Shown here: positions 8,423 to 43,289 of the stretch, piece after piece
How the letters are laid out: each line of letters begins with the position of its first letter
Position numbering within the stretch: the first letter of the stretch is position 1
Assembly (NCBI GenBank): GCA_036149055.1
Contig: JAYZQJ010000286.1
Span: 1-43,289, forward strand
Direction of reading: 5' to 3'
DNA: 43,289 nucleotides
Source of the DNA: Myxococcota bacterium
GTDB lineage: Bacteria > Myxococcota_A > Polyangia > Polyangiales > Sandaracinaceae
Program-made: the position numbers and the translations under genes
Notes under the pieces: model-generated
Told to the model about the DNA's origin: nothing
What the model saw: the letters and a program-made list of their open reading frames with translations, nothing else
The model's database searches: none

Positions 8423-8489
8423 CCCGACGGGGCCGCGGCTCGGGGGGTAGGTTCGGTGGGCCCGGCAGACAAGCCCGGCGCGCCCGAGC

Positions 8490-9581
<1,092 letters not shown>

Positions 9582-9662
9582 GCGCGCGAGAATAACACTC
9601 CGATCTGATATGCCCAGCACGAACGCTGGACGACGGGCGCCACAACCGGTAATCGGCTGGCG

Positions 9663-10733: not shown

Positions 10734-10769
10734 GTCACCGGTGGGCGCGAGCCCCCCCTGGCCGAAGGC

Positions 10770-11759: not shown

Positions 11760-11886
11760 GAGGGCTCCTTCCAGGTGTGGGGAATACCCGGGTGGCCTCA
11801 GTGTGCAGTCTTCGTACACAGTGATCAAGTCGGAAACGTCCGCCTCTGGTACTGTCCGGCCGGACGGCTCCCACCCCCCGGGAGAG

Positions 11887-13638
11887 ATGATGGCAAACTC
11901 CAACGCGATGCGTTCCGCGCGCCACGCGAGCGGTGTCCTGGCGGCGTCCCTGCTGCTCGCGCTGGGCTGCGCGCAGCGGCCGGTGTTCACGCCGGGCACG
12001 GACTGCGAGCTCAACAGCCAGTGCGCGGCCCAGCTCGTCTGTCGGCTCGGGCGCTGCCGCGTCGAGTGCCGCTCGGTGCGCGACTGCCCGGTCGGGCTCG
12101 CGTGCGTCTATGACGAGAGCGGGCTCGGCGCCTGCCAGATCGAAGACGAGCGCGAGTGCACGCTCGGGAGCGACTGCCCCACGCCGCTGGTCTGCCGCTT
12201 CGGCCGGTGCACGAACGCCTGCGAGACCGATCGCGACTGCCCCCCGGGCGCGCGCTGTCGCGAGGACGCGGACGGCACCCGCGGCTGCCGGGACGACGCC
12301 GACGTGGAGTGTGCGCTCAACAGCGACTGCGCCGCGCCCTACATCTGCGCGGTCGACGGCCGCTGCCGCGAGCAGTGCCGGGAGGATCGCGACTGCCGCG
12401 ACGGGCTCGTCTGCGAGGACGCGATGGAGCCGGCGGTCTGCGTGCGGCCGGGCGGCCCGGTCGACGGTGGAGTGGACGGTGGCACGGACGCGAGCCTCCC
12501 GGGCGACGCCGGCGTGAATCCGGACGGAGGCCCGCCCGCCGACTCCGGCGTGATGACCGACGGCGGCATGATGACCACCGTGGGCCCGCCGCTCCTCGGG
12601 GTCGGCTCCTTTCACGCCTGCGCGGCGCCGACGCCGGGCGACGTGCGCTGCTGGGGCGACAACACCTTCGGTCAGCTCGGGGTGGGCAGCTTCGGCGGGA
12701 GCCGCTCGACGCCCGAGGCGGCGATGATCTCGGGGGTTCGGCTCATCGCGGGCGGGGGCAACCACACGTGCGCGGCGACCGCGAGCGAGCTCTTCTGCTG
12801 GGGCGACAACGCGGAGGGGCAGCTCGGGCTCGGCACCACCACCAATCACCAGACCCCGCAGCGCGTCACCGGCCTGCCGGGGCCACCGACCCAGATCGTC
12901 GCCGGCGCGACCCACACCTGCGCGCAAGTCGGATTGCAGCTCTTCTGCTGGGGCGGCAACGTCTCCGGCCAGCTCGGCGACGGCTCCACCACGCGGCGCG
13001 CCTCGCCGGTCGAGATCACCGGCGGGCTCGCGAACGATCCGGCCGACGTCACCGCGTTCGGCGGCCACACCTGCGTGCTCCTGATCGACGGCCGCGTGCA
13101 GTGCTTCGGCGAGAACGCCGACGGACAGCTCGGCGACGGCACCCGCACCGATCGGTCCTCCCCCACGCTGGTCTCGGGCCTGACCGACGTGGTGGAGGTC
13201 GCGGCCGGGACGACCCACACCTGCGCGCGGCGTCGCGCTGGCGACGTGCGCTGCTGGGGGGCGAACGTGCTCGGCCAGCTGGGTGACGGCGGCACGACCG
13301 CGTCGACGACGCCGGTGGCCACCCGCCCGATCGCCGGCTCCGTGGTGCAGCTGACGGCCGGGAGCGGACACACCTGCGCGAGGACCAGCGCGGAGGTCTG
13401 GTGCTGGGGCGACAACGGCGCCGGTCAGACCGGCAGCGACGACGTGATGTTCCGGATCCTCGAGCCCACCATCGTGTCGGGGGCGGGAGTCGTCGACGAG
13501 GTCCGCGCGGGTCTGGACCACACGTGCGCGCGGGTTTCGGGCAGCATGCACCGGTGCTGGGGCAACAACATGAACGGGAAGCTCGGCGACGGGACCACCA
13601 CCAGCAGCTTCACCCCGGTCGCCGTGAGGTGGATGTGA
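11887..13638 (+). CDS. Lipoprotein with Cys-rich repeats and RCC1-like beta-propeller
   Basis: LLALGC lipobox; repeated CxxxxDC...C modules; DGG/DAG linker; about 7 HTCA...CWGxNxxGQLG RCC1 repeats. Start at 11887, 11890 or 11908. Confidence 0.88.
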   Translation: MMANSNAMRSARHASGVLAASLLLALGCAQRPVFTPGTDCELNSQCAAQLVCRLGRCRVECRSVRDCPVGLACVYDESGLGACQIEDERECTLGSDCPTPLVCRFGRCTNACETDRDCPPGARCREDADGTRGCRDDADVECALNSDCAAPYICAVDGRCREQCREDRDCRDGLVCEDAMEPAVCVRPGGPVDGGVDGGTDASLPGDAGVNPDGGPPADSGVMTDGGMMTTVGPPLLGVGSFHACAAPTPGDVRCWGDNTFGQLGVGSFGGSRSTPEAAMISGVRLIAGGGNHTCAATASELFCWGDNAEGQLGLGTTTNHQTPQRVTGLPGPPTQIVAGATHTCAQVGLQLFCWGGNVSGQLGDGSTTRRASPVEITGGLANDPADVTAFGGHTCVLLIDGRVQCFGENADGQLGDGTRTDRSSPTLVSGLTDVVEVAAGTTHTCARRRAGDVRCWGANVLGQLGDGGTTASTTPVATRPIAGSVVQLTAGSGHTCARTSAEVWCWGDNGAGQTGSDDVMFRILEPTIVSGAGVVDEVRAGLDHTCARVSGSMHRCWGNNMNGKLGDGTTTSSFTPVAVRWM

Positions 13639-14168
13639 GCGCGCGGCTGCTCTGCCTCCTCGCCCTGCTCCTCGTCGCCTGCGATCGGCCCCCGCCGGTC
13701 CTCGGAGGGGGCTGCGTCCTCAACAGCGACTGCGCCGACCCGCTCGTCTGCCGGCTCGAGCTCTGCCGCCGCCAGTGCGTCAGCTCGCGTGACTGCGGGG
13801 CCGGCCTGCTCTGCCTCAACATCGGCGAGGCCGAGAGCGGCGCGTGTCAGCTCCCGGAGGAGCGGAGCTGCGCGCTCACCAGCGACTGCACCGCGGGGCT
13901 CGCGTGCAACTTCGGCACGTGCACGACGGCCTGCGTGGAGGATCGCGACTGCCCGCCGGGCGCCCAGTGCCTCACGGACGACGCGAGCGGCGCCCTCGCC
14001 TGCATCGAGCCGCAGACCGACGGCTGCATCTACAACAGCGACTGCCCCGCCGGCTTCGTCTGCGCGCCCGACCAGAGCTGCCGGGTCGAGTGCCGAGAGG
14101 ACCGCGACTGCGACGCGCCCCGGCGCTGCGTGGGGAGCTTCTGCGTCCTGCCGGACGCGAGCGGGTGA
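13635..14168 (+). CDS. Small Cys-rich repeat lipoprotein
   Basis: GTG overlaps the upstream TGA; LLLVAC lipobox; the mature protein is almost all CxxxxDC repeats, colinear with the N-terminus of the upstream gene. Confidence 0.82.
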   Translation: MSARLLCLLALLLVACDRPPPVLGGGCVLNSDCADPLVCRLELCRRQCVSSRDCGAGLLCLNIGEAESGACQLPEERSCALTSDCTAGLACNFGTCTTACVEDRDCPPGAQCLTDDASGALACIEPQTDGCIYNSDCPAGFVCAPDQSCRVECREDRDCDAPRRCVGSFCVLPDASG

Positions 14169-14173
14169 GCGCG

Positions 14174-16159
14174 ATGCCGAGGCGACGCTTGCCGCGGGGT
14201 GACGTCCCGACCCGCGACATCGGCCCCTACAAGCTGGCCCACCGGATCGCGGTCGGCGGCATGGCCGAGGTGTTCCGCGCGCTCTGGCCGCAGCAGGCGG
14301 GCGGCGATCGCGCGGTCGTCATCAAGCGCATGCTGCCGATGCTGCTCGAGGACGCCGAGCAGCGGGAGATGTTCGCGCGGGAGGCCGCGCTCGGCGCGCA
14401 CATCGATCACCCGAACGTCGTGGCGGTGCTCGACCACGGCGTCGACGACGGCGCGCCCTACCTCGTGCTCGAGTACGTCTTCGGCGTCGACCTCTTCCGG
14501 CTCTCCCGGTACGTGCGCCGGCTCGGCCGCCCGCTCCGGGTGCCGCTCGCGGTGTGGATCGGCTGCGAGCTGCTCCGCGGCCTCGAGGCGGTGCACGACG
14601 TGCGCGACGACGCCGGCGCCCCGCTCGACGTCGTGCACCGCGACGTCAGCCCCTCGAACGTGTTCCTCTCGGTCCACGGCGACGTGAAGCTCGGCGACCT
14701 CGGCATCGCGCGCGACGGCCCGGAGCGCCCGCGCCCGAAGGGAGGCTTCCGCGCGAAGGGCAAGCTCGGCTACCTCCCGCCCGAGCAGGTGGGCGGCCAG
14801 GAGGTCGACCAGCGCGGCGACGTCTTCTCGGCCGCGGTGGTGATCGCGGAGCTGCTCCTCGGCAAGCCGCTCTACGCGGGCGGCACCGAGATCGGCGTGC
14901 TGCTCGCGATCCGCGACGGCGACGTCAGCGCGTTCGAGGCGATCGTGGACTCGCTCCCGAAGGGCCTGGGCCAGGCGGTGCTCGCCGGCCTGGCCTCGAC
15001 GCCGGAGGAGCGGGTGCAGAGCGCGGCCGCCCTGCGGGCGTCGCTCGAGCCGTTCGTGGACGCGCCCGCCAAGGCGCTGCAGGAGGAGCTCGGTCAGCTC
15101 GTGGTCACCGCGCTCGACGCGGACGGCGCGACCACCGACCGCACCTCGCTCGCGCGCACCATCGAGAGGGACGCCACGTCGTACGAGGCGCAGACCCCGG
15201 TCGCCCCGCCCGAGGAGGCGCTCCGCGAGTCGGGCGGCGTGTACCACGTGGAGCGCGAGGGAGAGGTCGTCGGCGTGTACACGCTCGCCCAGCTCGTCGC
15301 CGCCGTCACCACCGCCGAGGTGCGCGCGACCGACGCCGTGCGCGGAGAGACCGGCCCGCTCCGCGCGGTCGCGGCGATCCCGGAGCTGGCGCGTCACCTC
15401 CCCGCCTCCACCCGCACGCCGAGCTCCCGGCGGCGCACCCAGATGGCGGAGACCAGCGAGCTCTACGAGCTGAGCGGGCGGTCCTTCCTCGCGGTGCTCG
15501 TCGAGTCCCTGCGGGCCCGCGACGACGGCCTCCTCCTCTGCGAGCAGGGCGCGGTGCGCAAGGAGGTCTACCTCGAGGGCGGCGTGCCGGTGTTCGTCAC
15601 CTCGAACCGCCCCGAGGAGCTGCTCGGCGAGTTCCTGGTCGGGCGCGGAGTCCTCGACCGGCACGAGCTCGACATCGCGCTCGCGACGATGCCGCGCTTC
15701 GAGGGCCGGCTCGGAGAGACCCTCGTGGCCCTCGGGCTCGTCGACGCGGTGCAGGTGTTCCGTCACATCAGCGAGCAGGTGCGCGACAAGCTGCTCGACC
15801 TGTTCCTCTGGGAGCGCGGGCACGTGGCCCTCTACCGGGGCGTCGACCGGCCCGAGCGCGCCTTCCCGCTGCACCTCGACCCGTGGGAGGTCTTCGAGAC
15901 CGGCGCGCTGCGCCGCGTCGAGGCGGGGCTCGAGCAAGAGAAGCTGCGACCGGACCTCATCCTCGCGCGGACCGCCGTCGACCCCGCGGACTGCGGCGCT
16001 CCCGAGAGCCTGCAGGCGCTGTGGACGGCCTGCGCCGCGCCGCGCGCCCTGACCGAGCTCGAGGGCGTCGCGGCCACGCCCGCCCGGGCGCACGCGGGCG
16101 TCGTCCTCCTCCTGGAGCTGGGCGCGCTGGAGCCCCGCGGCTACGGTGGATACAGATGA
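14174..16159 (+). CDS. Cytoplasmic Ser/Thr kinase with GYF_2-like and DUF4388-like C-terminal domains
   Basis: IAVGGMAEVF, VVIKR, HRDVSPSNV, DLG (in place of DFG), GKLGYLPPEQ. C-terminal GLLLCEQGAVRKEVYLEGGVPVFVTSNRPEELLGEFL. No TM. Alternative GTG start at 14165. Confidence 0.85.
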   Translation: MPRRRLPRGDVPTRDIGPYKLAHRIAVGGMAEVFRALWPQQAGGDRAVVIKRMLPMLLEDAEQREMFAREAALGAHIDHPNVVAVLDHGVDDGAPYLVLEYVFGVDLFRLSRYVRRLGRPLRVPLAVWIGCELLRGLEAVHDVRDDAGAPLDVVHRDVSPSNVFLSVHGDVKLGDLGIARDGPERPRPKGGFRAKGKLGYLPPEQVGGQEVDQRGDVFSAAVVIAELLLGKPLYAGGTEIGVLLAIRDGDVSAFEAIVDSLPKGLGQAVLAGLASTPEERVQSAAALRASLEPFVDAPAKALQEELGQLVVTALDADGATTDRTSLARTIERDATSYEAQTPVAPPEEALRESGGVYHVEREGEVVGVYTLAQLVAAVTTAEVRATDAVRGETGPLRAVAAIPELARHLPASTRTPSSRRRTQMAETSELYELSGRSFLAVLVESLRARDDGLLLCEQGAVRKEVYLEGGVPVFVTSNRPEELLGEFLVGRGVLDRHELDIALATMPRFEGRLGETLVALGLVDAVQVFRHISEQVRDKLLDLFLWERGHVALYRGVDRPERAFPLHLDPWEVFETGALRRVEAGLEQEKLRPDLILARTAVDPADCGAPESLQALWTACAAPRALTELEGVAATPARAHAGVVLLLELGALEPRGYGGYR

Positions 16160-17511
16160 ACGGCGAGGACCCCCTCATCGGACAGATCCTGCTCGGCAAG
16201 CTGGAGGTGATCCGCCGGCTCGGGGGCGGCGGGATGGGCGTCGTGTACGAGGTCGAGCACCGCCTGACCGGCCACCGTCGCGCGCTCAAGGTGGTCCACG
16301 CGAAGTACGCCGACCGGCCGCGCTTCATGAAGCGGCTCCTCCGCGAGGCCAAGGTCGCGGGCACGCTCGAGACCCCGTACGTCGTCGAGACCTACGACGC
16401 GGGGCGCCTCGAGGACGGCTCGGCCTACGTGCTGATGGAGCTGCTGCGCGGGCAGACGCTCTACGACCTGATGCAGACCGAGGGGAAGGTCGCGCCCAAG
16501 CGCCTCGCGAACATCATGGCCCAGGTCGCCGAGGGCGTGGCCGTGGCCCACGAGGCGGGCATCGTGCACCGCGACGTGAAGCCCGAGAACATCTTCCTCG
16601 TCCCCGGCGACGACGACGCGGAGCGGGTGAAGATCCTCGACTTCGGCGTCTCCAAGTTCGAGCTCGGCACCGAGGAGGCGCCGACCCGCCTGACCGCCGA
16701 GGGCACGCTGGTGGGCACGCCCTACTACATGAGCCCCGAGCAGGCCGCCGGAAAGAAAGTAGACGCGCGCACCGACGTCTACGCGATGGGCGTGATCCTC
16801 TACGAGGCGCTCACCGGGCGGCTGCCCTTCGAGGCGGAGAGCGTGGGCGAGCTGTTCGTGAAGATCGGCGCGGGCGAGTGCGTGCCGCTGCGCATGCGGC
16901 GCCCCGACCTCGACGACGCGTGGTGCGAGATCGTGCACCGCGCCTTCCACCGCGACCCCGCGGTGCGTTACCCGAGCGCCGAGGCGCTGCGGCGAGATCT
17001 GGTGCCCCTCGGCACCGGGGACACGAAGAAGCGGGCCCGCACCATCTCGGACAGCGGACGCAGCACCATCGACTACGGCGCCGATCCCGCGGGCCGCGCG
17101 GAGCCAGCGCGCGAGCCCGAGCGCCCGCTCGACCCCGACGCCTCGAGCGAGACCCACGCGCTGAGCGCGCCGCCGCCCGCGCCCGACGCGGACGAGCGCC
17201 GGGACGGAGGCATGCCCGGGTGGGGTTGGGCCGCGCTCGGGGCCGCCGCGGTGCTCGCGATCGTGGTGCCGTGGCAGCTGCTCCGCCCCGCCCGCGACGT
17301 GCCCGAAGCGGCCGAGGCGCCGGCGGTCGGCGCCGAGCCGGTGGCGGCCGCCGAGCCCACCGCCGAGGAGGAGCCCGAGATCGACGACGCCGGCGTCGCG
17401 CCGCCGGAGGAGGTCGCCGAGCCCGCGCCGGCCCCCGCCGCTCCCACCCCGACCGAACGCACCGGCTCGCGCGCGCGCGCCGCCGGCCTCGATCCGAACC
17501 CCTACCGATGA
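16156..17511 (+). CDS. Transmembrane Ser/Thr protein kinase
   Basis: ATGA overlap; LGGGGMGVVY, ALK, HRDVKPEN, DFG, GTPYYMSPEQ; TM WAALGAAAVLAIVVPW; Pro/Ala/Glu tail ending DPNPYR. Confidence 0.92.
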   Translation: MNGEDPLIGQILLGKLEVIRRLGGGGMGVVYEVEHRLTGHRRALKVVHAKYADRPRFMKRLLREAKVAGTLETPYVVETYDAGRLEDGSAYVLMELLRGQTLYDLMQTEGKVAPKRLANIMAQVAEGVAVAHEAGIVHRDVKPENIFLVPGDDDAERVKILDFGVSKFELGTEEAPTRLTAEGTLVGTPYYMSPEQAAGKKVDARTDVYAMGVILYEALTGRLPFEAESVGELFVKIGAGECVPLRMRRPDLDDAWCEIVHRAFHRDPAVRYPSAEALRRDLVPLGTGDTKKRARTISDSGRSTIDYGADPAGRAEPAREPERPLDPDASSETHALSAPPPAPDADERRDGGMPGWGWAALGAAAVLAIVVPWQLLRPARDVPEAAEAPAVGAEPVAAAEPTAEEEPEIDDAGVAPPEEVAEPAPAPAAPTPTERTGSRARAAGLDPNPYR

Positions 17512-31547: not shown

Positions 31548-31762
31548 CGGGTCCTCCTGCCGCCGGTGGGGCGGCCTTCCGGGCTTGCCTTGCATAGGCT
31601 GGACGCCGGAATTTCTCAAGCATTCAGTGCGGTCCGCCTGCTCCCGGCCGGCCCGTGACCGGCGCCTTACAGGAAACTCTCAGCAGGTGTTCACTCTTGT
31701 TCTCATCTGCTAAGGTGCGGACCAGCTGGCGGGACCGCGCGTCCCCCTGCAGCGCTTTTCAC

Positions 31763-33631
31763 ATGACGAGCAGTCCCGCGAAGATGAGCGTCAACAGCGA
31801 CGCGTCTGGGCCCAACACCGCACCCTCGGCGCGCTCCGCCCGTCAGAGGAAGGCGTTCGTCCCGGTCCACCCCACCCCCTGCGGGAAATACACGCTGATC
31901 GCCAAGGTCGGCCACGGCGGCATGGCCGAGGTGTTCCTGGGCGTCGCCTCGGGCATGGCGGGCTTCCGCAAGCTCTCGGTGGTGAAGCGGATCCACCCGC
32001 AGCTCCTCGAGGAGCCCGAGTTCGTCCAGATGTTCCTGGACGAGGCGCGCCTCGCCGCGCGGCTGAGCCACCCCAACGTCGTGCAGACCCACGAGGTGGG
32101 AGAGCACGACGGCGTGCCCTTCATCGCGATGGAGTATCTGGAGGGGCAGCCCTACGACAAGCTCCTCAAGATGATCCGCCGCAAGGGCGAGCAGATCCCG
32201 CTCAAGCTCGCCATCCGGGTCGTCATGGAGTCGCTGGCCGGCCTCCACTACGCGCACGAGCTCAAGGACTACGACGGCACCCCGCTCGGGGTCGTGCACC
32301 GCGACATCTCGCCCTCGAACATCTTCGTCACCTACCAGGGCAGCGTGAAGATCCTGGACTTCGGCATCGCCAAGGCGACGACGAAGCTCTCGGAGACGCG
32401 CACCGGTCAGATCAAGGGCAAGCTCTCCTACATGGCGCCGGAGCAGGCGCGCGGGAAGCAGATCGACGCCCGCGCCGACGTCTGGAGCATGGGCGTCACC
32501 CTCTTCGAGAGCGCCACGGGCGCCCGCCTGTTCAAGGGCGAGAGCGACGTCGACACCCTGCAGCGCGTGCTCACCGGCAACATCGAGGAGCTCCTCGACG
32601 AGGCCGACGCGAGCCTGCCGGCGTCGGTGGCCGCGATCGTGCGAAAGGCCCTGTCCCGCAGGGTCGAGGATCGCTTCGAGAGCGCGGCGCAGATGAAGAA
32701 CGCGCTCGCCGAGGTGCTCAAGGAGCTGCCGGGGGACGACCCGGCGCCCGAGCAGTACCTGACGGAGCACTTCGAGGAGCTGGCCTCCTCGCAGCGCGAG
32801 ATGCTCGGCGACCTGCTCGAGCACGCGGAGAAGCTGAGCCAGCAGAAGGCCGCGGAGCCGGAGCCGGCCGCCGCGGTGGCGCCGGCCGCCGAGGCGGCGC
32901 CGGCGGCCGCGCCCGCCCCTCGCCGGCAGGGTTGGCAGACGGCCCTGCTCGCCGCGCTGATCGTGCTCGGCATCGGCGGCGGGGTCTACGTGGCGCTCTC
33001 CACCGAAGAAGAGGGAGACCGCGGCGCGTTGGCGGCGGCGGGCACCGGCCCGGCCGAGTCCCCCGAGGCGCAGACCACCCCCGAAGCGCAGCCCACGCCG
33101 GAGGCGCAGGCCACCCCCGAAGCGCAGGCCACCCCGGGAGCGCAGACCACCCCGGGAGCGGAGGGCGGCGAGGAGCCCCCCGAGACCGAGCCCTCCGGGT
33201 CGGGCGCGGAGGCCGAGGCCCCGGGGACCGAAGGGCCCGCGGGCGAGGAGACGGCGTCCGCCGAGGGCGCCGAGGAAGAGGGCGAGACGAGCGCCGAGCC
33301 GTCCGGCCGCCCCGACGCGAGGGAGCGAGAGCGCCGTCGCCGGCTCGCCGAGCGCCGACGCGCGGAGGCGGCCGCGGCCCGCGCCGAGCGACGCGCCGAG
33401 GAGGCCGCCCCGGCCTCGAACGAGTTCGGCACCCTGCGGCTGGTCACGCGGCCCTACTCCGAGGTCTACCTGAACGGCCGCCGGATCGGGACCACGCCCC
33501 TGCTGGGTCACCGCCTGCCCGCCGGGAGCCACACGCTGGTCCTCCGCAACCCGGAGCAGGGCATCGAGCAGCGCGTCAGCGTGCGCATCCAGGCCAACGA
33601 GACGACGCCGCTGAACCTCAGCCTCGACTGA
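31763..33631 (+). CDS. Transmembrane Ser/Thr kinase with C-terminal periplasmic PEGA domain
   Basis: VGHGGMAEVF, VVKR, HRDISPSN, DFG, GKLSYMAPEQ; TM; C-terminal GTLRLVTRPYSEVYLNGRRIGTTPL. Start at 31763 or 31784. Confidence 0.9.
   Translation: MTSSPAKMSVNSDASGPNTAPSARSARQRKAFVPVHPTPCGKYTLIAKVGHGGMAEVFLGVASGMAGFRKLSVVKRIHPQLLEEPEFVQMFLDEARLAARLSHPNVVQTHEVGEHDGVPFIAMEYLEGQPYDKLLKMIRRKGEQIPLKLAIRVVMESLAGLHYAHELKDYDGTPLGVVHRDISPSNIFVTYQGSVKILDFGIAKATTKLSETRTGQIKGKLSYMAPEQARGKQIDARADVWSMGVTLFESATGARLFKGESDVDTLQRVLTGNIEELLDEADASLPASVAAIVRKALSRRVEDRFESAAQMKNALAEVLKELPGDDPAPEQYLTEHFEELASSQREMLGDLLEHAEKLSQQKAAEPEPAAAVAPAAEAAPAAAPAPRRQGWQTALLAALIVLGIGGGVYVALSTEEEGDRGALAAAGTGPAESPEAQTTPEAQPTPEAQATPEAQATPGAQTTPGAEGGEEPPETEPSGSGAEAEAPGTEGPAGEETASAEGAEEEGETSAEPSGRPDARERERRRRLAERRRAEAAAARAERRAEEAAPASNEFGTLRLVTRPYSEVYLNGRRIGTTPLLGHRLPAGSHTLVLRNPEQGIEQRVSVRIQANETTPLNLSLD
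33062..33160 (+). repeat. In-frame 18-bp tandem repeat (about 5.5 copies) encoding P(E/G)AQ(T/P/A)T
   Basis: PEAQTT PEAQPT PEAQAT PEAQAT PGAQTT PGA in the periplasmic linker of the kinase. Confidence 0.85.
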
Positions 33632-33662
33632 CGGGCCCGCACCCCACCGTGAGCAGCAGCAG

Positions 33663-35015
33663 TTGAGCGCCACGCGAACGCGACGCAGCCTCTGGCAGTC
33701 GTTCCTCCGGCACCCGATGACGGCCTCGGTCGCCGTCGTCTGGTCGGTCTGGCTCACGTTCATGCTCGTGACCGACGCCTGGGGCCTGTTCGAGGGCGGG
33801 TGGCCGATGTCGGTCACCATGGCCTTCGGCTCCTTCGTCGCGGGCGCCACGAGCGAGGGCGGCGGCGCGGTCGCGTTCCCGGTGATGACGCTGGTCTTCC
33901 AGCTCGAGCCGAGCGTCGCCCGCGACTTCTCGTTGATGATCCAGTCGATCGGGATGACGGCGGCGAGCTACGCGATCTTCCGGCTCCGCGTCCCGGTGGA
34001 TCGCACCGCGCTGATCTACGGGAGCCTCGGCGGCGCCCTCGGGATCGTCTTCGCGATGGAGGTGGTGGCCCCCCTGGTGCGCCCCGCCTACGTGAAGATG
34101 TTCTTCGTGAGCTTCTGGGCCGGCTTCGGCTACGCGCTCTACCGCATCCGGAGGCGAGCCGGCCGCGAGACCCGCCGCGAGATCGGCGCCGCCCCGCCGC
34201 GCGTGATCGCGCTCCTGCTCGGCGTGGGCTTCGTCGGCGGCATGGTCAGCGGGCTCACCGGGAGCGGCCTCGACATCAGCCTCTTCGCGCTGCTCGTCCT
34301 GGGCTTCGGGCTCGACGAGCGCATCGCCACGCCGACCTCGGTCGTGCTGATGGCGGGCAACGCCGTGGTCGGCGCCGTCGCGCGCGCGGCCACGCCCGGC
34401 GCGATCTCGGCCGAGGCCGTCGACTTCTGGCTCGTCTGCATCCCGGTCGTCGTCGTCGGCGCTCCCCTCGGCGCGTGGGCGAGCGCCCACCTCCCGCGGC
34501 GCCTGCTCGTCGGGTTCCTGCTGCTCGTCATCACCGTGCAGCTGGCCGGGGCCTGGCTCCTGCTCCCGCTCGACTGGACGCTCGCCACCTTCAGCCTCGT
34601 CACCATCGCGGCGGGCGTGCTCGGCTTCGGGCTCCTCGATCGCATGGGCAGCCGGAGCCTCCGGCGAGGCGGCACCCGCTGGCAGGTCACGCCGGCCGCC
34701 GCCGCGCACCTCGACGACGCCGCGGGCGAGCGCGTCGAGGCGCGCCTCGTGAACATCGGCACGAACGGCGCGCTGCTGAGCCTCGAGGCGCCGCCGGACA
34801 CGCTCACCCCTCCGCTCCAGCTGGTGCTCCCGGACGGCACGGTGGAGGGCATCCGGATCCCGATCGCGGTGCGCCACCACGAGCTGGACGAGGAGGGCCG
34901 CAGCGCCGTCGGCGTGCAGTTCCGCGCGCAGAACGCGGCGGTGCTACGCGACGTCGATCGCTGGCGCGACGCCCAGAGCGCCGAGCACACCTTCGTGGTC
35001 GGCGCCTCGACCTAG
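33663..35015 (+). CDS. TauE/SafE-family permease fused to a C-terminal PilZ domain
   Basis: FGSFVAGATSEGGGAVAFPVMTL, SLMIQSIGM, GSGLD, ATPTSVVLM, VVVGAPLG. C-terminal RRGGTR...NIGTNGA...AVRH...VGVQF. TTG start uncertain. Confidence 0.82.
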   Translation: MSATRTRRSLWQSFLRHPMTASVAVVWSVWLTFMLVTDAWGLFEGGWPMSVTMAFGSFVAGATSEGGGAVAFPVMTLVFQLEPSVARDFSLMIQSIGMTAASYAIFRLRVPVDRTALIYGSLGGALGIVFAMEVVAPLVRPAYVKMFFVSFWAGFGYALYRIRRRAGRETRREIGAAPPRVIALLLGVGFVGGMVSGLTGSGLDISLFALLVLGFGLDERIATPTSVVLMAGNAVVGAVARAATPGAISAEAVDFWLVCIPVVVVGAPLGAWASAHLPRRLLVGFLLLVITVQLAGAWLLLPLDWTLATFSLVTIAAGVLGFGLLDRMGSRSLRRGGTRWQVTPAAAAHLDDAAGERVEARLVNIGTNGALLSLEAPPDTLTPPLQLVLPDGTVEGIRIPIAVRHHELDEEGRSAVGVQFRAQNAAVLRDVDRWRDAQSAEHTFVVGAST

Positions 35016-35017
35016 CC

Positions 35018-35896
35018 CTACCCGCGCGCGGCTTCGATCGCCGCCTCGCCGGCGGCGAGCAGATCGACCTCGTCGCGGTCGCCGTTCGAGACCGAGACCA
35101 CCGCGATCAGGGGCGCGAGCTCGAGGCGCTGCCCCTCGAACAGAACCCGCCCGCGCCGCACCTCGGCCTCGAGGCGGCCCGCCACCTCGAGCGCCTCGGG
35201 GCGTGACGTGGTGCGGCAGAGGATGCCCAGCCGCAGGTCGCCGAGGCGCGCCACGACGTCCTCCTGGCGCACGCAGCGCAGGGTCTGGTCGGCGAGCTGG
35301 CGGAGCGCGAAGGCGACCGCGCGCTGCCCGAGCTCGTCGCCCCCGAACGTCAGCTCGACGACGATGAGCGAGAGGCTGGCCCCTCGGCGCTTCGCGTAGG
35401 CGGTCTCCTCGGCGATGCGGTCGATCATCACGTGGCGCCGGAACACGCCGAGCAGCGGGTCGCGCGTGGCCGCGCGGTACACCCGCCCGTGGAACTCGTC
35501 GGCGTGCTCGGGAGGCACCGAGAACGAGATGAGCTCGCAGCCGCCGAGCCGTACGCGGTCGCCGTCCTTCAGCGGCACGGCGTCGAGGATCCTTGCGCCG
35601 TTGACCGACGTGCCGTTGGTGGATCCGAGGTCCTCGACCCAGAGCATGCCGCCGCGCCGGAAGAGGCGCGCGTGCGCGCGGGAGAGGCCCTCGTCGGGCA
35701 CCGTGAGCGTCGCGAGCTCGGAGCGACCGATGACGAAGCTCTCGCCGTCGAGCTGAACCAGCCTGCCCGCGGCCTCACCGGCCACGACCAGCACGAACGC
35801 GCGATCGGTCCGGCGCTTGCCGGGGGCCTCGAACATCCGCGCGCCGAGCAGCTCGGTCCCTTCTTCGTCTTCGTCCAGAAATGCCGAATCGCTCAT
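35018..35896 (-). CDS. FHA domain plus degenerate GGDEF domain
   Basis: FHA: IGRS...GLSRAHA...EDLGSTNGT. GGDEF-like fold: RDPLLG...VRQEDVVARLGDLRL, with no GGDEF signature and the I-site RxxD retained. Confidence 0.82.
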   Translation of the reverse strand: MSDSAFLDEDEEGTELLGARMFEAPGKRRTDRAFVLVVAGEAAGRLVQLDGESFVIGRSELATLTVPDEGLSRAHARLFRRGGMLWVEDLGSTNGTSVNGARILDAVPLKDGDRVRLGGCELISFSVPPEHADEFHGRVYRAATRDPLLGVFRRHVMIDRIAEETAYAKRRGASLSLIVVELTFGGDELGQRAVAFALRQLADQTLRCVRQEDVVARLGDLRLGILCRTTSRPEALEVAGRLEAEVRRGRVLFEGQRLELAPLIAVVSVSNGDRDEVDLLAAGEAAIEAARG

Positions 35897-35935
35897 CGAG
35901 ACTCTCAGCTCTCTCGTGGTATACCCTCTGGCTCG

Positions 35936-38900
35936 ATGAAAGTCCCGTCGCTGTTGTGTTTGCTCCGGGCGCGATCCGACGATCCAACCCCCGATCGTCG
36001 GGCCTACACCTTCCTCGCCGATGACGGCACGGAAGCGAGCGTCCAGACCTACGCTCAGCTGGACACGCGAGCCCGCGCGATCGGCGCCACGCTGAACGCC
36101 GCCCTCGAGGGGCGACGCGAGCCGGTCCTCCTCCTGTTCGCGCCCGGCATGCCCTACGTGGAGGGCTTCTACGGCGCCATGTACGGCGACGCGATCCCGG
36201 TGCCCGCCTATCCGCCGGACCCCGCCCGGCTGGAGCGGACGCTCCCGCGGCTCACCTCGCTCGTCGAGGACGCGGGGGCCAAGGTCGTCCTGACCACCAG
36301 CGACATCCTCGCGCTCGCCCAGGGGCTCTCCGCCTTCGCGCCGGCGCTCGGCGAGCTGAAGTGGATCGCGGTGGACGCGGTCGACGACGGCGCCGCCGCG
36401 GACTGGAGAGAGCCGGAGCTGGGGCCGGATGACGTGTGCTTCCTCCAGTACACCTCCGGCTCGACTTCAGCGCCGAAAGGGGTGCGGGTCACACACGGAA
36501 ACCTGCTCGCCAACAATCGGATGATCGCCGACGCGATGGGCAACGACCCCGACACGGTCGGCGTGTCGTGGCTGCCCATGTACCACGACATGGGGCTCAT
36601 CGGTCACATCCTGCAACCCTTGTTTCTCGGCATCCACTCGGTGCTGATGTCGCCCCTGACCTTCCTCAAGCAGCCGTTCCGGTGGCTCGAGGCGGTCAGC
36701 CGCTATCGCGCGACCACGTCGGGCGGCCCCAACTTCGCGTACGATCTCTGCGTGCGCCGCATCGACGAGGCGCAGGTCGCGTCGCTCGACCTCTCGTCGT
36801 GGCGCCTCGCCTACAGCGGCGCGGAGCCGGTCCGCCCGGACACCGTCTCGGCGTTCCTCGAGAAGTTCGAGCCCGCCGGCATCCGCGCCGAGTCCATCTT
36901 CCCCTGCTACGGGCTCGCCGAGGCGACCCTGCTCGTCACCGGCGGCCCGAACGGTCGCCCTCCCCGTCGGCTCACGGTCGCCGACGAGGGGCTGCAGTCC
37001 GGGCGGGTGGTCGACGCCGACGACGACGACGAGGCCAAGCGCGAGCTGGTCACCTGCGGCCGCGCGCCGGAGGGGACGGAGCTCCGGATCGTCGATCCCA
37101 AGACGCGCCGGGAGGCCGGCGCCGATCAGGTCGGCGAGGTCTGGGCCCGCGGGCCTCACGTCGCCGACGGCTACTGGTCCAAGGACGAGAAGGAGGGCCG
37201 CACCCGGGCGTCCGACGAGGTCTTCCGGGCCCGGCTCGCGACCGGCGAGGGGCCCTTCCTGCGCACCGGCGACCTGGGCTTCGTCCGCGACGGCGAGCTC
37301 GTCGTCACCGGCCGGCTGAAGGATCTGATCATCGTCGGCGGGCGGAACCACTACCCGCAGGACGTCGAGCTGACCGTCGAGCGGAGTCACCCGTCGCTGC
37401 GGCGAGGCTGCGCGGCCGCGTTCACGATCGAGATCGGCGACGAGCCGCACCTCGCGGTCGCGATCGAGGTCGAGCGGCGCTTCCGCCAGGATCGGCGGCG
37501 AGAGGAGAAGCCGCGAGAGGGCGGCGCGGCGCGCGGAGCCGACCGTCGAGCCTCGGGGCTGCCCCCCGGCAACGAGGCGCCGGTCCCCACCAAGCTCGAT
37601 CTCGACGAGGTGGCCGACGTCGTGCGGAGCGCGATCTGGAGGCACCACGAGCTGCCGCTCCACACGCTGGTGCTGCTGAAGGCCGGGACGATCCCGAAGA
37701 CCTCCAGCGGGAAGATCCAGCGCAACGCGACCCGCCTCGCCTTCCTCGAGGGGCAGCTCGACACCCTCGGCGTCGACGTGGCGCGCGCGCACTCGAGCAC
37801 CCGCCCCTATGAGCCGCCGCAGACGCCGGCGGAGCAGCTCATCGCGAACATCTGGATGGACGTGCTCGGGGTGGAGCGCGTGGGCCGCGCCGACACCTTC
37901 GTGGAGCTCGGCGGCGACTCGGTGAAGGCGGCGCAGGTCGTCTGGCGCGCGAGGGAGCGCGGGCTCGAGCTGTCGCTCCAGAGCATGTTCGAGTACCCGA
38001 CGCTCGCCGGGCTGTCCGCCTCCGCGAGCGATCGCGCCACCCCGCCCCCGGCGGCCCCGGGCGCGCCCCAGAGCCGCGAGGTCACCCCGCTCTCGCCGCT
38101 CGAGCTGGACGCGCTCGCGGGCTCGCCCGACGCGTCGGCGCAGACGGCGACGATCCGAGGCTCCGGGCTCGAGCCCGAGCGCGTGCTGGCGGCGTTCCGC
38201 GCCGTGATCGCGCACCACGACGCGCTCCGCTCGTCGGTCCGACGGGTCGACGGTCGCTGGGTCCGCAGCCACGCCGAGGTGGAGCCCGCGACCGCGCCGA
38301 TCGAGTGGGTCTCGGCCGAGGCGCTCGACGCCGACGAGACCCTCGAGCGCGCCCGGGCGCGGGCTCGCGCCCTCCTCGACCGGGAGTCCGGGCAGCTCGC
38401 CGCCGTCGCGCTCCTCGGCGTCGAGACCCCCGACGAGGCCGCGGCCCCGCTCCGCGTCGTCATCGCGCTCGACGCGCTGATCGCGGACGGCGTCTCCTGG
38501 ATGGTCCTCTTCGACGATCTCGACCGGGCCTACCGCCACCTCGAGGCCGGCGAGCCGGTGCGGCTCCCGAAGTCGACGCCGTTCGGCGACTGGGTGGCGG
38601 GCGTCAGCGGCCGCGCCGAGCGCACCTCCAAGCCGGTGCTCGATCGGTGGCTCGACCAGCTCGCGATCCCCCCGGCGTTCGAGGGCGCGCGGGGCGACGG
38701 CGACGGCGAGGTCATCGAGCTCCGGCGTTCGGTGAAGGACGTCGGCCACACCCTCGAGCGGCTCGTGCGCGAGCGCGGCGTGAACGTCCTCGAGTTCCTG
38801 ACGACCGCGACGCTGATGGCCCTCCACCGCCACGGCGGCGTCAACCAGCGCCTCGACGTGCTGACCTCCGGCCGCGACGACCCCGAGACGGATCTCTCCC

Positions 38901-39433
38901 GCACCGTGGGCCGCTTCCGGGCCCGCGAGCCGGTCGCGGTGGCGGTCGACCCCGAGGCCACCCGCGATCCCCTCGGCACGGTGAGCCGACACGTCTCGCG
39001 GCTCCGCGAGCTGAACGCCCCGTACCGCGCCCTCGCGCACTATCACCCGGCGGAGGACGTGCGGCGCGAGCTCCAGCGCGCGAGCCGGAGCCGGCTGCTG
39101 CTCCACTACGGCGAGTGGTACGCGGAGGCGTTCACGGCCCCCCGCATCGGATATTGCACGGTGGACGACGCGCCGGAGGTCGAGCCGGACGTCGCGGTCC
39201 TCGGTGGATCGCTGAGCGGCCCCGCGCTCGAGCTGAAGCTCCGCTTCCGCGGGGATCACTTCGCGGAGGCCGACATGGGCGCCTTCCTCGACGCCGCGGT
39301 CGACATCACCAGGGAGCTGGGCGTGGCGCGCGCGGACGCCGGCCCCGGTCTGGTCGAGAAGCACCAGGACTCCTCGCTCGACGACGACCAGCTCGCCAAG
39401 GTCCTGCGCCGCGCGCGCGACAAGCGTCGCTGA
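35936..39433 (+). CDS. Fatty acyl-AMP ligase (FAAL) - ACP - degenerate epimerization domain
   Basis: Start MKVPSLL; FLQYTSGSTSAPKG, SWLPMYHDMGLI, GGPNFAY, PCYGLAEATL, FAAL-type insertion, FLRTGDLG, IPKTSSGKIQR; ACP FVELGGDS (Ser codon 37919); E-like AHHDALR, DALIADGVSW, DLSRTVGRF. Confidence 0.9.
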   Translation: MKVPSLLCLLRARSDDPTPDRRAYTFLADDGTEASVQTYAQLDTRARAIGATLNAALEGRREPVLLLFAPGMPYVEGFYGAMYGDAIPVPAYPPDPARLERTLPRLTSLVEDAGAKVVLTTSDILALAQGLSAFAPALGELKWIAVDAVDDGAAADWREPELGPDDVCFLQYTSGSTSAPKGVRVTHGNLLANNRMIADAMGNDPDTVGVSWLPMYHDMGLIGHILQPLFLGIHSVLMSPLTFLKQPFRWLEAVSRYRATTSGGPNFAYDLCVRRIDEAQVASLDLSSWRLAYSGAEPVRPDTVSAFLEKFEPAGIRAESIFPCYGLAEATLLVTGGPNGRPPRRLTVADEGLQSGRVVDADDDDEAKRELVTCGRAPEGTELRIVDPKTRREAGADQVGEVWARGPHVADGYWSKDEKEGRTRASDEVFRARLATGEGPFLRTGDLGFVRDGELVVTGRLKDLIIVGGRNHYPQDVELTVERSHPSLRRGCAAAFTIEIGDEPHLAVAIEVERRFRQDRRREEKPREGGAARGADRRASGLPPGNEAPVPTKLDLDEVADVVRSAIWRHHELPLHTLVLLKAGTIPKTSSGKIQRNATRLAFLEGQLDTLGVDVARAHSSTRPYEPPQTPAEQLIANIWMDVLGVERVGRADTFVELGGDSVKAAQVVWRARERGLELSLQSMFEYPTLAGLSASASDRATPPPAAPGAPQSREVTPLSPLELDALAGSPDASAQTATIRGSGLEPERVLAAFRAVIAHHDALRSSVRRVDGRWVRSHAEVEPATAPIEWVSAEALDADETLERARARARALLDRESGQLAAVALLGVETPDEAAAPLRVVIALDALIADGVSWMVLFDDLDRAYRHLEAGEPVRLPKSTPFGDWVAGVSGRAERTSKPVLDRWLDQLAIPPAFEGARGDGDGEVIELRRSVKDVGHTLERLVRERGVNVLEFLTTATLMALHRHGGVNQRLDVLTSGRDDPETDLSRTVGRFRAREPVAVAVDPEATRDPLGTVSRHVSRLRELNAPYRALAHYHPAEDVRRELQRASRSRLLLHYGEWYAEAFTAPRIGYCTVDDAPEVEPDVAVLGGSLSGPALELKLRFRGDHFAEADMGAFLDAAVDITRELGVARADAGPGLVEKHQDSSLDDDQLAKVLRRARDKRR

Positions 39434-39440
39434 CCGAGAG

Positions 39441-42400
39441 ATGAGCTTCGAGCACGAGGAATCTTCGCGCCCGTCCGCCGACCCGGAGGTGGAGTCGATC
39501 TTCGACGTCACTCCCCTCCAGGAGTCGATGCTGTTCGCGAAGGTCCTCAGCGGCGCGCCCGGCACGTACCTCCTGCAGACCGCGCTCGAGCTGGTCGGTC
39601 CGCTCGACCGGGAGCGACTGCGCGAGGCACTCGCGTCCGTGATCGCGCGGCACCCGTCGCTCCGCACCTCGTTCGTGTGGGAGGAGCTGGACCAGCCGCA
39701 GCAGGTCGTGTGGTCGACCGCGGACGTGCCCTGGGAGGTGGTCGACTGGTCGGGGCAGCCTCGCTACGAGCTGAAGCGGCGGTGGAGCCAGCTCCTCGAG
39801 GAGGATCGCCGCGCGGGCATGGATCTCGAGCTGGCGCCGCTCCTTCGCGCCACGCTCGTCCGGCTCGACCGCGACGAGCACCTCCTCCTGCTCACGACCC
39901 ATCACATCGTCATCGACGGCTGGTCCCTCGTCGTGCTGATGCGCGAGGTCTTCGCGAGCTACGGCGGACAGGCCCCGGCGCATCGCCCCTTCGAGCTGCG
40001 CGACTACGTGCGCTGGCTGCGTCGGCGCCCGTCGGAGGCGGCGCTCTGGGCGGCCGAGCTCGGAGGGGTGAGCCCGTCGGCGCTCCGCCTGCCGCCCCCC
40101 GGCGATCCCTCGGGGGGCCCCGCGGAGCAGTCGGCGGTGCTCGATCAGGCGACGGCCTCCGCGCTCGAGGGCGCGGCGCGTGCCCGGGGGCTGCGCATGG
40201 CCACGCTCTACGAGGCGGCGTGGGCCATCGTGCTCCGCCTCTACACGCAGCGCTCCGACGTGACCTTCGGCGTGGTGGTCGCGGGCCGACCGCCCGACCT
40301 CCCCGGCGCCGAGCTGGCGATCGGTCCGTTCATTCACATGCTGCCGCTCGCGGTCTCGGTGGATCCCGCGCGCCCCGTGCGCGAGTGGCTGGACGAGCTC
40401 GAGCGCCGGACCGCGGCGCTGAACGGGCGCCACGCGTCGCTGCAGGACGTCGCGAGGGCGACCGGTCGCCGCGCGGACGAGCTCTTCGACTCGATGGTCG
40501 TGGTCGAGAACCTCTCGATCGAGGAGGCGATGCGGGGCGCGGCGCCGGCGGACCTGACGATCCGCGGCTTCCGCCACACCGAGCAAGCCGAGCTGCCGCT
40601 CGAGCTCGCCGTCTTCCCCGCCGAGCAGCCGCGGCTCGTGCTGCGCTACCGCCGCGACCGCGTCCACGCCGAGCTGCCCGCCCGCCTGCTGCGGGTGTAC
40701 CGGCACGTGCTGCGGCGCCTCGTCCGGCTGGACGCGCTGGGCACGGTGGCGGAGCTGCTCGACCTCCCGACGGAGGAGCGGCACGACGTCGTCGGCCGGT
40801 GGAACGCGACCGGCGAGCCCCTCCCGACCGCGCGCACCGTCGACGAGCTCATCCTCGCGCACGCCGCGCGCAGCGGCGACCGCGTGGCCTTGTCGGAGGC
40901 GAGCGGCCCGACGACCTACCGGCAGCTGCGCGACCGCGTCCACGCCCTGCGTCGCGCGCTCGAGGGCCTCGGCGTCGGCGAAGGGGCCACGGTCCTCGCG
41001 CTCACCGCCGAAGGCCGGGAGCTCGCGGCGACCTTCGCCGCCATCGCCGAGCGCGGCGCGATCTGCGTGCCGGTCGACGCGAGCCTGCCGGAGGCGCTGC
41101 TCACCACCCTCGCCCTTCGGATCGACGCCCGCGCGGTGGTCGCCTCGGCGGAGGACTGCCCCGACGCACTGGAGCCGCTGCGCGTCGATCCGGACGCGCA
41201 CGACGATCCGGACGCGCACGACGATCCCCCGGCCGCCGGCGAGCCGGCGCCGCGCCTGCTGGACGCGGCCGTCGTCGGGCAGCTCGTCCTGGACGCCGAC
41301 GACCGCCTGCGCGTCCTGACCCACACCCACCGCGCGCTGCTCGCGACCGTGACCTGGGCGCGACGGGACTACGGGTTCGCCGGCAACGACGACGTGTGGG
41401 TGCGCCGGCCGCGCACCTTCGCCGGGCTCGGCGCCGCGGAGGTGCTGGCGCCGCTCGCCGCCGGCGCGACCGTGCACCGCGCGCTCCCCGAGCGGCGGCC
41501 GACGCGCGTGTTCATCGGGCGCGGCGACGAGCCTCCGCCCGAGCCGGCGGCGCCGACCCGCTCGCTCTCCTTCATCGGCCCTCCGCGGGCGGGCCGGGCG
41601 ACGGACGCCGGGGCTCGCGTCACGGTGCTCGAGGGCTTCCCCGAGCAAGGCGAGTGCGCCTTCTACGGCCCCCACCGTCCCGCCGAGGCGGCGCGCCGGA
41701 TCCTCGGCCGGCCGATCGCCAACGTCCGCTGCTTCGTGGTCGACGAGCGCTGCGAGCCGGTCCCCACCGGCGTGGCGGGAGAGCTGCTCCTCGCCGGCGA
41801 CACCCTCGCGCGCGAGGTGGCCGGCTCGCCGAGAGAGACGGCGGAGCGATGGATCCCGCAGGGCTTCGGGTGGGCGCCCGGCGAGCGCACCTTCCGCACC
41901 GGCCACCAGGCCCGCTGGCTGCCGGACGGCCGCGTGGAGGTGCTCTCCTCGGCGACGACGGCGTGGACACCGCTGCGCTCCGGCTCCGCCGCGCTCTCCA
42001 GCGTCGGGCTCCGCGCCGAGCCCGGCGCCTCGACGCGGCCGGGGATCGTCGAGCTCCCGCTCGCGCCGGAGGCGGCGCCGCTCGTCCCGGTGGCCGCGTT
42101 CGCCTGGTGGCTCGCGATCCGGCGCGGCACGCCTCGCCTGTCGCTCCCCCTCGTCGCCGGCGATCGACGGGTCGAGGCGGTGATCGACCTGCGCGCCGCG
42201 CGCGATGGCGCCGTCGTCCTGTCACGCGTGGAGGGCGCCCTGCTCCGCGCGTTCTCCGACGGCCCGCCGCTCGGCTCGGACGCCTCGCCGGCCGCCCCGT
42301 ACGTGGTCCGCCTCGGGGACGGCCCCGCGCCGGAGGGGCTGCTCGGCGTCGCCCGGCTCGACCGGGGGCAGGCCCGGATCCAGGTCCCGCCGACCGAGGA

Positions 42401-43289
42401 CACCGAGGCGGTCGCGGCCGAGCTTCGGCTCCTGGCCGAGGCGTGCGCGGGCGCCGCCGCCGGCTTCACGCTCGACGCCTTCGCGCTCGAAGCCTGGGGC
42501 GCCTCGAGGCCCGCGCGCCTCGAGGCCCCGGCAGACGCGCCCGCGCGCTCCGAGACGGCGCCCCTGGACCTGCCGCTCGATCACCCCCGCCGCCGCGAGA
42601 GCGGAGCGAGCCGCCGGGGACGGCTGGACATCGACCTCCCGCCGGACGCCGACCCGGACGCGGTGCTCGCTGCGTGGGCCTGGACGCTCGCCGCGCACGC
42701 GCGCACGTCGACCGTCGCCGTGAACGTGCCCGCCCGGCTGCGGACCGTCGGCGGAGACGACGCCCGGTTCGTCACCACGCTGTCCGCGCCCCTCGACCTG
42801 GCTCGACGCCCTTCGCTCGACGCGCTGCGCGCGCGCGTCCGAGACGCCCGGGACGCGGCCCTCGTCGCGAGCCCCCTCCCCTGGGGCGCCCGCCCCGACG
42901 ACGCCGCGGCCCCGGTCAACTTCGTCCCCGCGAGCGCGGCGTGGGCCGCCTCGCTCCCGCGCGCGGACGTGACGCTGGACCTCGGCGCGAGCTGCGCGCT
43001 CGAGTACGACGCCGAGCTCTTCGAAGAGGCGACGGTCGCGCAGCTCGCCCGCGCGCTCTCGCGCCTGCTCGAAGCGGCGCTGGAGTCGCCCGAGCTCCCG
43101 CTGCCCGAGCTGCGCTGGGGCGACGGCCCGGAGCGGGCGAGGCTGGACGAACTCTCGCGCGGCGCCGCGCTCGACTACACGCCTCGCTGCCTGCACGAGC
43201 TCTTCGAGGACGCGGTCGACCGGACGCCCGACGCCGAGGCGCTCGTCTGGCAGACCGAGCGCTGGACCTACCGGCAGCTCGAGCGCCGC
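39441..43289 (+). CDS. NRPS, 3' truncated by the window: DCL-like C domain, degenerate A domain, C-lobe remnants, start of a second A domain
   Basis: Absent from the ORF track. Manual translation from ATG 39441 is open to the window end (1283 codons): VTPLQESMLF, LRTSFVWEELDQP, HHIVIDGW (39900), TTYRQL, GRPIAN, GELLLAG, FRTGHQ, LDLPLDHPR, LEYDAELF, CLHELFE...WTYRQL. Confidence 0.88.
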   Translation, partial: MSFEHEESSRPSADPEVESIFDVTPLQESMLFAKVLSGAPGTYLLQTALELVGPLDRERLREALASVIARHPSLRTSFVWEELDQPQQVVWSTADVPWEVVDWSGQPRYELKRRWSQLLEEDRRAGMDLELAPLLRATLVRLDRDEHLLLLTTHHIVIDGWSLVVLMREVFASYGGQAPAHRPFELRDYVRWLRRRPSEAALWAAELGGVSPSALRLPPPGDPSGGPAEQSAVLDQATASALEGAARARGLRMATLYEAAWAIVLRLYTQRSDVTFGVVVAGRPPDLPGAELAIGPFIHMLPLAVSVDPARPVREWLDELERRTAALNGRHASLQDVARATGRRADELFDSMVVVENLSIEEAMRGAAPADLTIRGFRHTEQAELPLELAVFPAEQPRLVLRYRRDRVHAELPARLLRVYRHVLRRLVRLDALGTVAELLDLPTEERHDVVGRWNATGEPLPTARTVDELILAHAARSGDRVALSEASGPTTYRQLRDRVHALRRALEGLGVGEGATVLALTAEGRELAATFAAIAERGAICVPVDASLPEALLTTLALRIDARAVVASAEDCPDALEPLRVDPDAHDDPDAHDDPPAAGEPAPRLLDAAVVGQLVLDADDRLRVLTHTHRALLATVTWARRDYGFAGNDDVWVRRPRTFAGLGAAEVLAPLAAGATVHRALPERRPTRVFIGRGDEPPPEPAAPTRSLSFIGPPRAGRATDAGARVTVLEGFPEQGECAFYGPHRPAEAARRILGRPIANVRCFVVDERCEPVPTGVAGELLLAGDTLAREVAGSPRETAERWIPQGFGWAPGERTFRTGHQARWLPDGRVEVLSSATTAWTPLRSGSAALSSVGLRAEPGASTRPGIVELPLAPEAAPLVPVAAFAWWLAIRRGTPRLSLPLVAGDRRVEAVIDLRAARDGAVVLSRVEGALLRAFSDGPPLGSDASPAAPYVVRLGDGPAPEGLLGVARLDRGQARIQVPPTEDTEAVAAELRLLAEACAGAAAGFTLDAFALEAWGASRPARLEAPADAPARSETAPLDLPLDHPRRRESGASRRGRLDIDLPPDADPDAVLAAWAWTLAAHARTSTVAVNVPARLRTVGGDDARFVTTLSAPLDLARRPSLDALRARVRDARDAALVASPLPWGARPDDAAAPVNFVPASAAWAASLPRADVTLDLGASCALEYDAELFEEATVAQLARALSRLLEAALESPELPLPELRWGDGPERARLDELSRGAALDYTPRCLHELFEDAVDRTPDAEALVWQTERWTYRQLERR
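41187..41227 (+). repeat. Perfect in-frame 18-bp tandem duplication (DPDAHD x2)
   Basis: GATCCGGACGCGCACGAC twice, followed by GATCC. Confidence 0.9.

Follow-up and report, generated by a model that had tools for sequence, protein, structure and literature searches.

A FAAL-initiated nonribosomal peptide synthetase of a Myxococcota bacterium with a module putatively rebuilt from two halves, each beside an inactive partner domain

In ACV synthetase and the fungal aminoadipate reductase NPS3, the adenylation (A) domain is directly preceded by the C-terminal lobe of a condensation (C) domain alone, without the HHxxxDG motif; according to PMC7884236, these C* or ADA lobes are required for adenylation, and C* lobes mark starter modules. 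In the fungal nonribosomal peptide synthetases (NRPSs) SidD and Nps6, an inactive A remnant (dA) lies inside a working enzyme; the SidD dA lacks approximately 290 N-terminal residues, and its carrier is retained and loaded by another A domain (PMC10192304). For LgrA, PMC10510592 describes a rigid platform in which the C domain is packed on the A core (C-Acore), and an inactive epimerization (E) domain at the protein end that precedes LgrB. The lipopeptide lines of myxochromides S and D include one module that adds no residue, which is complete but has a mutated carrier motif, GGNPS (PMC6180311). Here, we describe an NRPS open reading frame (ORF) of 1,283 amino acids at the end of a contig from a Myxococcota bacterium of the family Sandaracinaceae (GenBank assembly GCA_036149055.1; 9.9 Mb, 73% GC, 289 contigs). 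The window analysed is the whole contig (JAYZQJ010000286.1, C286 below; 43,289 nucleotides), and the ORF (39441..43289; + strand, like its domains and the gene before it) is cut by the contig end, because the window is the entire contig and no stop occurs in frame +1.

The ORF consists of an intact C domain (C1), a dead A core (A*), two mini C-terminal C lobes, and the start of a second A domain (A2), and the gene before it encodes a fatty acyl-AMP ligase (FAAL), an acyl carrier protein (ACP), and an inactive epimerase-like domain (E*). As in C* and ADA, only the C-terminal lobe is present, without the active-site lobe (by profile for lobe 2, by fold for lobe 1), but these lobes are internal (residues 866–1232) rather than N-terminal in the protein, form a tandem pair, and follow an intact C domain and a dead A core; their role in adenylation is putative. 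A* resembles the dA of SidD as an inactive A remnant, but is not N-terminally truncated with its own carrier kept; instead, it keeps the core and has neither the C-terminal subdomain (Asub) nor a carrier. As in LgrA, a dead E-type domain at a protein end is followed by an N-terminal C domain in the next protein, but here the ACP ahead of E* would be loaded by FAAL, and the A core that adjoins C1 is dead. PvdL (matched by the PRK05691 model and by structure) likewise starts with FAAL–ACP and has E followed by a C domain of the DCL clade, but here no C–A–carrier (C-A-T) module stands between ACP and E*, and no siderophore uptake or tailoring genes were seen among the neighbours scanned. Module skipping, which the preliminary description had suggested, does not fit in the myxochromide sense, because no carrier is present to skip, and the next C domain is reduced to lobes. 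Each part has a precedent (the C*/ADA lobe of ACV synthetase, the dA of SidD, the inactive E of LgrA), whereas their combination was not found in open-access full text; searches of the same scope turned up neither a bacterial C-Acore unit that lacks Asub and carrier nor tandem mini-lobes at an internal position. We consider it fairly probable that the locus is the N-terminal part of a working line of FAAL, NRPS, and polyketide synthase (PKS), with putative activity and product, and that two halves, each propped by a dummy partner, have been combined there into a single module.

The domains of the ORF were placed with a profile built from 90 canonical modules. C1 (39489..40781, approximately residues 17–447; Pfam, 2e-67) is intact, as first described, with the HHxxxDG motif of an elongation module present as HHIVIDG at residues 154–160 (39900–39920). 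In a FastTree tree of C domains, with reference classes set by motif, C1 fell in the DCL clade (SH-like support 97), although it has no active epimerase or D-configured donor before it: the preceding E* is dead and the donor carrier is FAAL-loaded. The dead core A* (40830..41948) retains the N-terminal subdomain and the A6–A7 barrel. The P-loop is lost (41274–41336), with VGQLVLDADDRLRVLTHTHRA (residues 612–632) aligned to YTSGSTGrPKG..H, and the profile alignment shows that the A4 Asp, the A7 Asp (which reads FRTGHQ, 41892–41909), and the A8 Arg are lost too. Similarity to A cores spans residues 464–836 and stops at residues 835–836, the hinge between Acore and Asub at A8. Motifs A8–A10, including the A10 Lys, and the carrier GGxS occur in none of the six frames, and neither a carrier motif nor a profile match was detected after A* in the ORF profile search and six-frame motif scan, nor any carrier remnant. 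The initial reading of these losses from the sequence was thus borne out, and the segment does not constitute a C-A-T module beyond its C domain.

The erosion of A* was selective. We compared 67 columns whose conservation reaches 85% or more across canonical cores and, guided by known motifs, assigned 17 of them to ligand binding; A* retains 3 of the 17 ligand columns and 35 of the 50 others (Fisher p = 4e-4). Of the three retained ligand residues, one is an artefact of aligning the replaced P-loop; when the P-loop is left out, two of eight ligand columns are kept (p = 0.02). Five intact A domains from the same genome keep 15–17 of the 17 ligand columns and 31–48 of the 50 others. The N-terminal part and the A6–A7 barrel are the best-kept parts of A* (barrel identity to the consensus 0.53; 0.38–0.66 in the intact domains) and the pocket is the worst kept (0.22 vs 0.32–0.49). 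When intact domains were randomly mutated, with stops barred, to the total loss seen in A* (200 runs at each of three GC equilibria), approximately 10 ligand columns remained, and the observed gap was reached in 0 of 200 runs at each setting (0 of 600). Between residues 441 and 1190, four synonymous variants were found vs one non-synonymous variant among 40 of the 104 variants listed, against a neutral synonymous share of 0.29–0.31 (p approximately 0.03; a small sample). Structural retention is supported by the selective loss of ligand residues, the predicted preservation of the C-lobe fold in lobe 1, the cut at the hinge shared with other NRPSs, and the synonymous excess.

Alternatively, the segments could be leftovers from the loss or swapping of modules, kept in frame solely because the downstream modules are needed and folded merely so as not to aggregate, in which case they, and lobe 1 especially, could be replaced by a short linker. 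We regard this as unlikely, since the selective loss is not reproduced by neutral decay, although selection against misfolding alone is compatible with these tests. Compositional and length changes speak for it: GC at second codon positions and the share of Gly, Ala, Arg, and Pro are raised in the interior (0.57–0.63 vs 0.48), the A* pocket region contains deletions, and a loop of A* is polymorphic in repeat number. Retention of the lobe cores speaks against it, because both mini-lobes have lost loops but kept their predicted core.

Two C-terminal-lobe remnants are present, the upper end of the one or two originally suspected. Lobe 2 (42567..43136), which contains LDLPLDHPR...LEYDAELFEEATV, was identified as a C-terminal lobe by hhalign (98%, E = 2e-13), with a score of 87.2 against at most 17.5 in 40 shuffles; it scored z = 15–17 against two LCL lobes, and a profile match placed the lobe end at residues 1182–1232. 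It is LCL-derived and similar to the C*/ADA lobes found ahead of starter A domains. Lobe 1 (42036..42470; approximately 145 amino acids, residues 866–1010) is recognisable by fold only: structure prediction, which had been recommended, folded it as a C-lobe from the single sequence, without an alignment, despite the absence of detectable sequence similarity, and 18 of 30 ESM feature matches were to Condensation clusters. AlphaFold2 gave no usable fold for residues 434–1283 (mean pLDDT 36.9). That lobe 1 is invisible to sequence profiles matters for genome mining. After lobe 2, profile alignment detected the start of A2 (43182..43289; from residue 1248), which is cut by the contig end; it is the normal-looking A start noted earlier, but probably lies within a two-copy repeat shared with another module.

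The preliminary description had inferred structural selection from an interior kept open without a frameshift. That conclusion is upheld by the evidence above, but not by the argument that led to it. The 1,283 codons of frame +1 are indeed free of stops, but the shadow frame +3 is likewise stop-free across the same 3.8 kb (frame −1 has one stop), so openness is uninformative for the NRPS interior, and a segment upstream of needed modules stays in frame whatever its role, making the open frame a weak argument for selection. GC at third codon positions (GC3) does not fall below 0.87 in any stretch of 30 codons in the ORF; it was rejected as functional evidence, because the neutral simulations also held GC3 at 0.89–0.96. 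A hidden compensated frameshift was rejected, given this GC3 and the absence of the missing parts from all six frames. Misassembly was rejected up to position 43028, from a single 17.4-kb contig of an independent run that covers 33501–43028 with 48 substitutions and no gap within the ORF. To that position, the absence of a frameshift held, and long contigs from four studies contained none; length variants in the ORF on the organism's own contigs were all in frame, and frameshifting rows, which came from contigs of depth 3–4 where the total depth was much higher, were treated as off-target. Among the length variants was an 18-base repeat encoding DPDAHD (41168–41203) in the A* loop before the lost P-loop, which occurred in one, two, or three copies between runs.

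In terms of relatives, the interior appears confined to this species, a further point in favour of a passive relic. Among 32 genomes of the family, it was matched in only two: its own, and 43 amino acids in the same-genus genome G001. A wider search of the interior returned 43 representatives at E ≤ 0.001, nearly all restricted to the lobe end, and among the matches listed none covered more than 42% of the interior (the best word-sharing candidates, up to 5,000 amino acids, having been scored). Neither the ORF nor any of nine trimmed versions of it had an exact match to a cluster, and a metagenome scan gave one match only, at 27%. G001 has a DCL domain followed by one shortened lobe and an A domain, with no A*, which also sits easily with a relic of module exchange. 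The syntenic gene of this sister species (G001:C54:165323-183844; L027/L028) encodes a 6,173-amino-acid NRPS of C-A-T-E-DCL-mini-lobe-A-T and three more modules; an A-T starter encoded by its own gene and a sulfotransferase lie next to it. Shortened lobes also open several other NRPSs. A single-module NRPS elsewhere in the same genome as the window (G000:C147:33760-38439; L023) has a shortened C-lobe before an A domain with a 330-amino-acid insert, and many members of the family have an ORF of comparable size; we presume its N-terminus to be formyltransferase-like and the insert monooxygenase-like.

Against the relic stands the recurrence of the same boundary elsewhere. Of 911 full A cores in 421 proteins, gathered by similarity to this locus and hence not a random sample, 23 keep no more than 11 ligand columns; six of these are the FAAL of this cluster, and 17 remain, some of them borderline. 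Most of the 17 retain Asub and carrier, whereas four, A* included, retain neither: the core in P0012 is internal and followed by an intact C domain, and those in P0053 and P0133 are protein C-termini. A targeted scan with the P0053 tail yielded 80 loci, of which two, both in Acidobacteriota, are close relatives. In one (L051), a protein ends in E-DCL-A*, and the retrieved stretch contains no NRPS gene beyond it; in the other (L052), a stand-alone DCL-A* gene (6633–8936) lies just before an NRPS (8812–16872) whose first C domain lacks HHxxxD, and a gene with a LanC domain (LanM-like) lies on its other side. All five cores (P0053, L051, L052, P0012, and P0133) end at about the same A8 hinge without Asub or carrier; in the first four, the N-terminal part and barrel are kept and the P-loop is lost, whereas P0133 is eroded throughout. 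A single ancestral dead-core family was not supported, because the CVPVD motif shared with P0012 gave no clade. The dead-core label requires five changes on the A-core tree, two of them forced by strong branches, with long branches being unreliable, and C1 falls outside the group of the acidobacterial C domains. As the trees do not link these hinge-cut C-A* designs to the present locus, convergent origins are the more likely reading, with the same caveat about long branches. P0297 (C, A core, lobe, A-T, thioesterase [TE]) was discounted as a parallel because its motifs are intact and its junction is abrupt. P0128 (5,568 amino acids) contains four successive modules with similar dead A cores in which carriers and C domains are kept, implying loading in trans, and P0153 (5,423 amino acids) contains three modules, each with a full C domain plus an extra C-terminal lobe ahead of the A domain.

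The upstream gene (35936..39433; 1,165 amino acids; Pfam and NCBIfam) would provide the start of a FAAL-initiated lipopeptide line. Its FAAL (35981..37735; Pfam and NCBIfam matches) and ACP (37820..38026; PF00550) have intact motifs, namely the P-loop YTSGSTSAPKG, SSGKIQR, and the carrier GGDSV with the active Ser. E* (38105..39355) groups with E domains on a long branch (SH-like support 100), but lacks both catalytic motifs, HHxxxD and EGHGRE (the His and Glu motifs). An E domain that meets a DCL domain at a gene boundary forms an ordinary junction, and E* is therefore most plausibly kept for docking. The 90% cluster of this gene has seven members, six of full length, and no ACP-E* homologue combining high identity with broad coverage was found outside the species. 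Five other proteins (P0176, P0179, and P0186–P0188) have PKS modules ending in an ACP and an epimerase-clade domain, mostly with intact motifs, P0187 having lost one His.

The contig probably ends at a collapsed two-copy repeat common to another module (43030..43289), comprising the lobe 2 end and the start of A2. Depth roughly doubles from about position 43030 (residue ~1197) in three DNA runs (25 vs 13.2, 25.3 vs 9.1, and 20.1 vs 8.4), and short bubble contigs occur at 43035–43102, where the assembly breaks. No second copy of this repeat was found in the assembly, and no contig overlaps the end by 21 bases or more. Extension of the contig, which had been proposed, thus gave no direct overlap but did give a probable continuation on contig C115, where the only other NRPS match open at a contig end (C115:42596-36744) encodes a partial C domain and then A-T-C-A-T with intact motifs. 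A gene for ketosynthase, acyltransferase, and ACP (KS-AT-ACP) follows it, with PKS motifs intact as read from the sequence and no TE. In G001, a 62% identical homologue of a kinase gene of the window (31655–33631), together with homologues of several C115 genes, flanks one NRPS within approximately 40 kb in shuffled order, making the join of C286 and C115 probable. The ORF would then continue with intact modules and a PKS. At least two further intact modules and the PKS make a lipoamino acid, one of the two products first proposed, unlikely and point to a lipopeptide–polyketide hybrid. The pocket residues of the two downstream A domains on C115 are DAFFIGHVV and DASHVGNIS. A convergent three-module NRPS on C115 (G000:C115:13925-26532; L021/L022) has a TE-like end and is accompanied by an ABC transporter and a biopterin-dependent aromatic amino acid hydroxylase. 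Its pocket residues are DILQFGLIW, DVWHVSLID, and DARNWGEVA, and it may complete the same product. By specificity-code tables, we take DAFFIGHVV to be Leu-like, DILQFGLIW to be Gly, and DVWHVSLID to be Ser.

Three dead domains in two adjacent genes could instead mark a silent or decaying cluster, or a gene broken in the unseen gap to C115, and although four RNA runs contain part of the stretch, the contigs analysed from one of them can neither separate RNA from DNA nor show expression. We nevertheless think this very improbable: FAAL, ACP, C1, two downstream modules, and the PKS are intact, the stretch is present in 20 of the 24 listed runs from 11 studies, mostly marine (one run may be its source), and variants in the ORF outside the repeat comprise eight synonymous vs two non-synonymous among 40 of the 104 variants listed, with those at 43151–43179 dropped from the count as possibly paralogous.

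In the rebuilt-module reading, FAAL would load a fatty acid onto the ACP, as its intact motifs suggest, and E*, although chemically dead, would keep the E-to-DCL junction and present the acyl-ACP to C1. C1 would rest on the dead but retained A core in the manner of the rigid C-Acore platform, and A2 would rest on mini-lobe 2 as starter A domains do on C*/ADA lobes, with mini-lobe 1, given its predicted fold, acting as a folded spacer. C1 would then acylate the amino acid bound to the first carrier that follows A2, presumably in the unassembled gap, so that the stretch would count as one module, not two, and the chain would be extended by the further modules and the KS-AT-ACP on C115. Such a module would probably have arisen when a "C-A*core" end became fused to a "C*-A-T" starter.

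The chain might also hold two functions, with C*-A2-T as a true initiation module and C1-A* acylating in trans a later intermediate, a side-chain amine, or a free acceptor. That C* lobes mark starter modules (PMC7884236), that C-A* occurs as a protein C-terminus (L051) and a stand-alone gene (L052), and that an intact C domain follows C-A* in P0012 are all compatible with such an arrangement, which we nonetheless judge improbable, because the closest cis carrier would make the simplest acceptor, and neither the window nor the NRPS matches of the genome showed a free carrier or A-T gene. A broader proposal, which we advance as a whole only tentatively and consider rather doubtful, is that C plus a dead A core may be a recurrent, undescribed, portable condensation unit that arose on several occasions, requires no A partner beyond a dummy core, and is paired with modules whose own C domain is dead or reduced to a lobe of approximately 145–190 amino acids; the spare mini-lobe would then serve as the surface on which the dummy A core docks, and the chain would thereby fold back and bring C1 to the next carrier.

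Should the dummies be required, the locus would define the minimal partner surfaces of C and A, that is, the part of an A core that a C domain requires and the smallest C-lobe that supports an A domain, which bears on where modules should be cut in NRPS engineering, and the locus shows one route by which modules split and re-fuse. In genome mining, counting of A domains would overpredict the product of this locus by one residue. The pathway would represent an uncharacterised lipopeptide–polyketide pathway of a marine bacterium present in several studies.

Elsewhere in the window, the gene content includes many Ser/Thr kinases and proteins with PEGA and FHA domains, which is suggestive of a myxobacterium. 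Two genes directly precede the FAAL gene: one for a TauE/SafE membrane protein fused to PilZ (33663–35015), and a convergent one for an FHA plus GGDEF-like protein (35018–35896).

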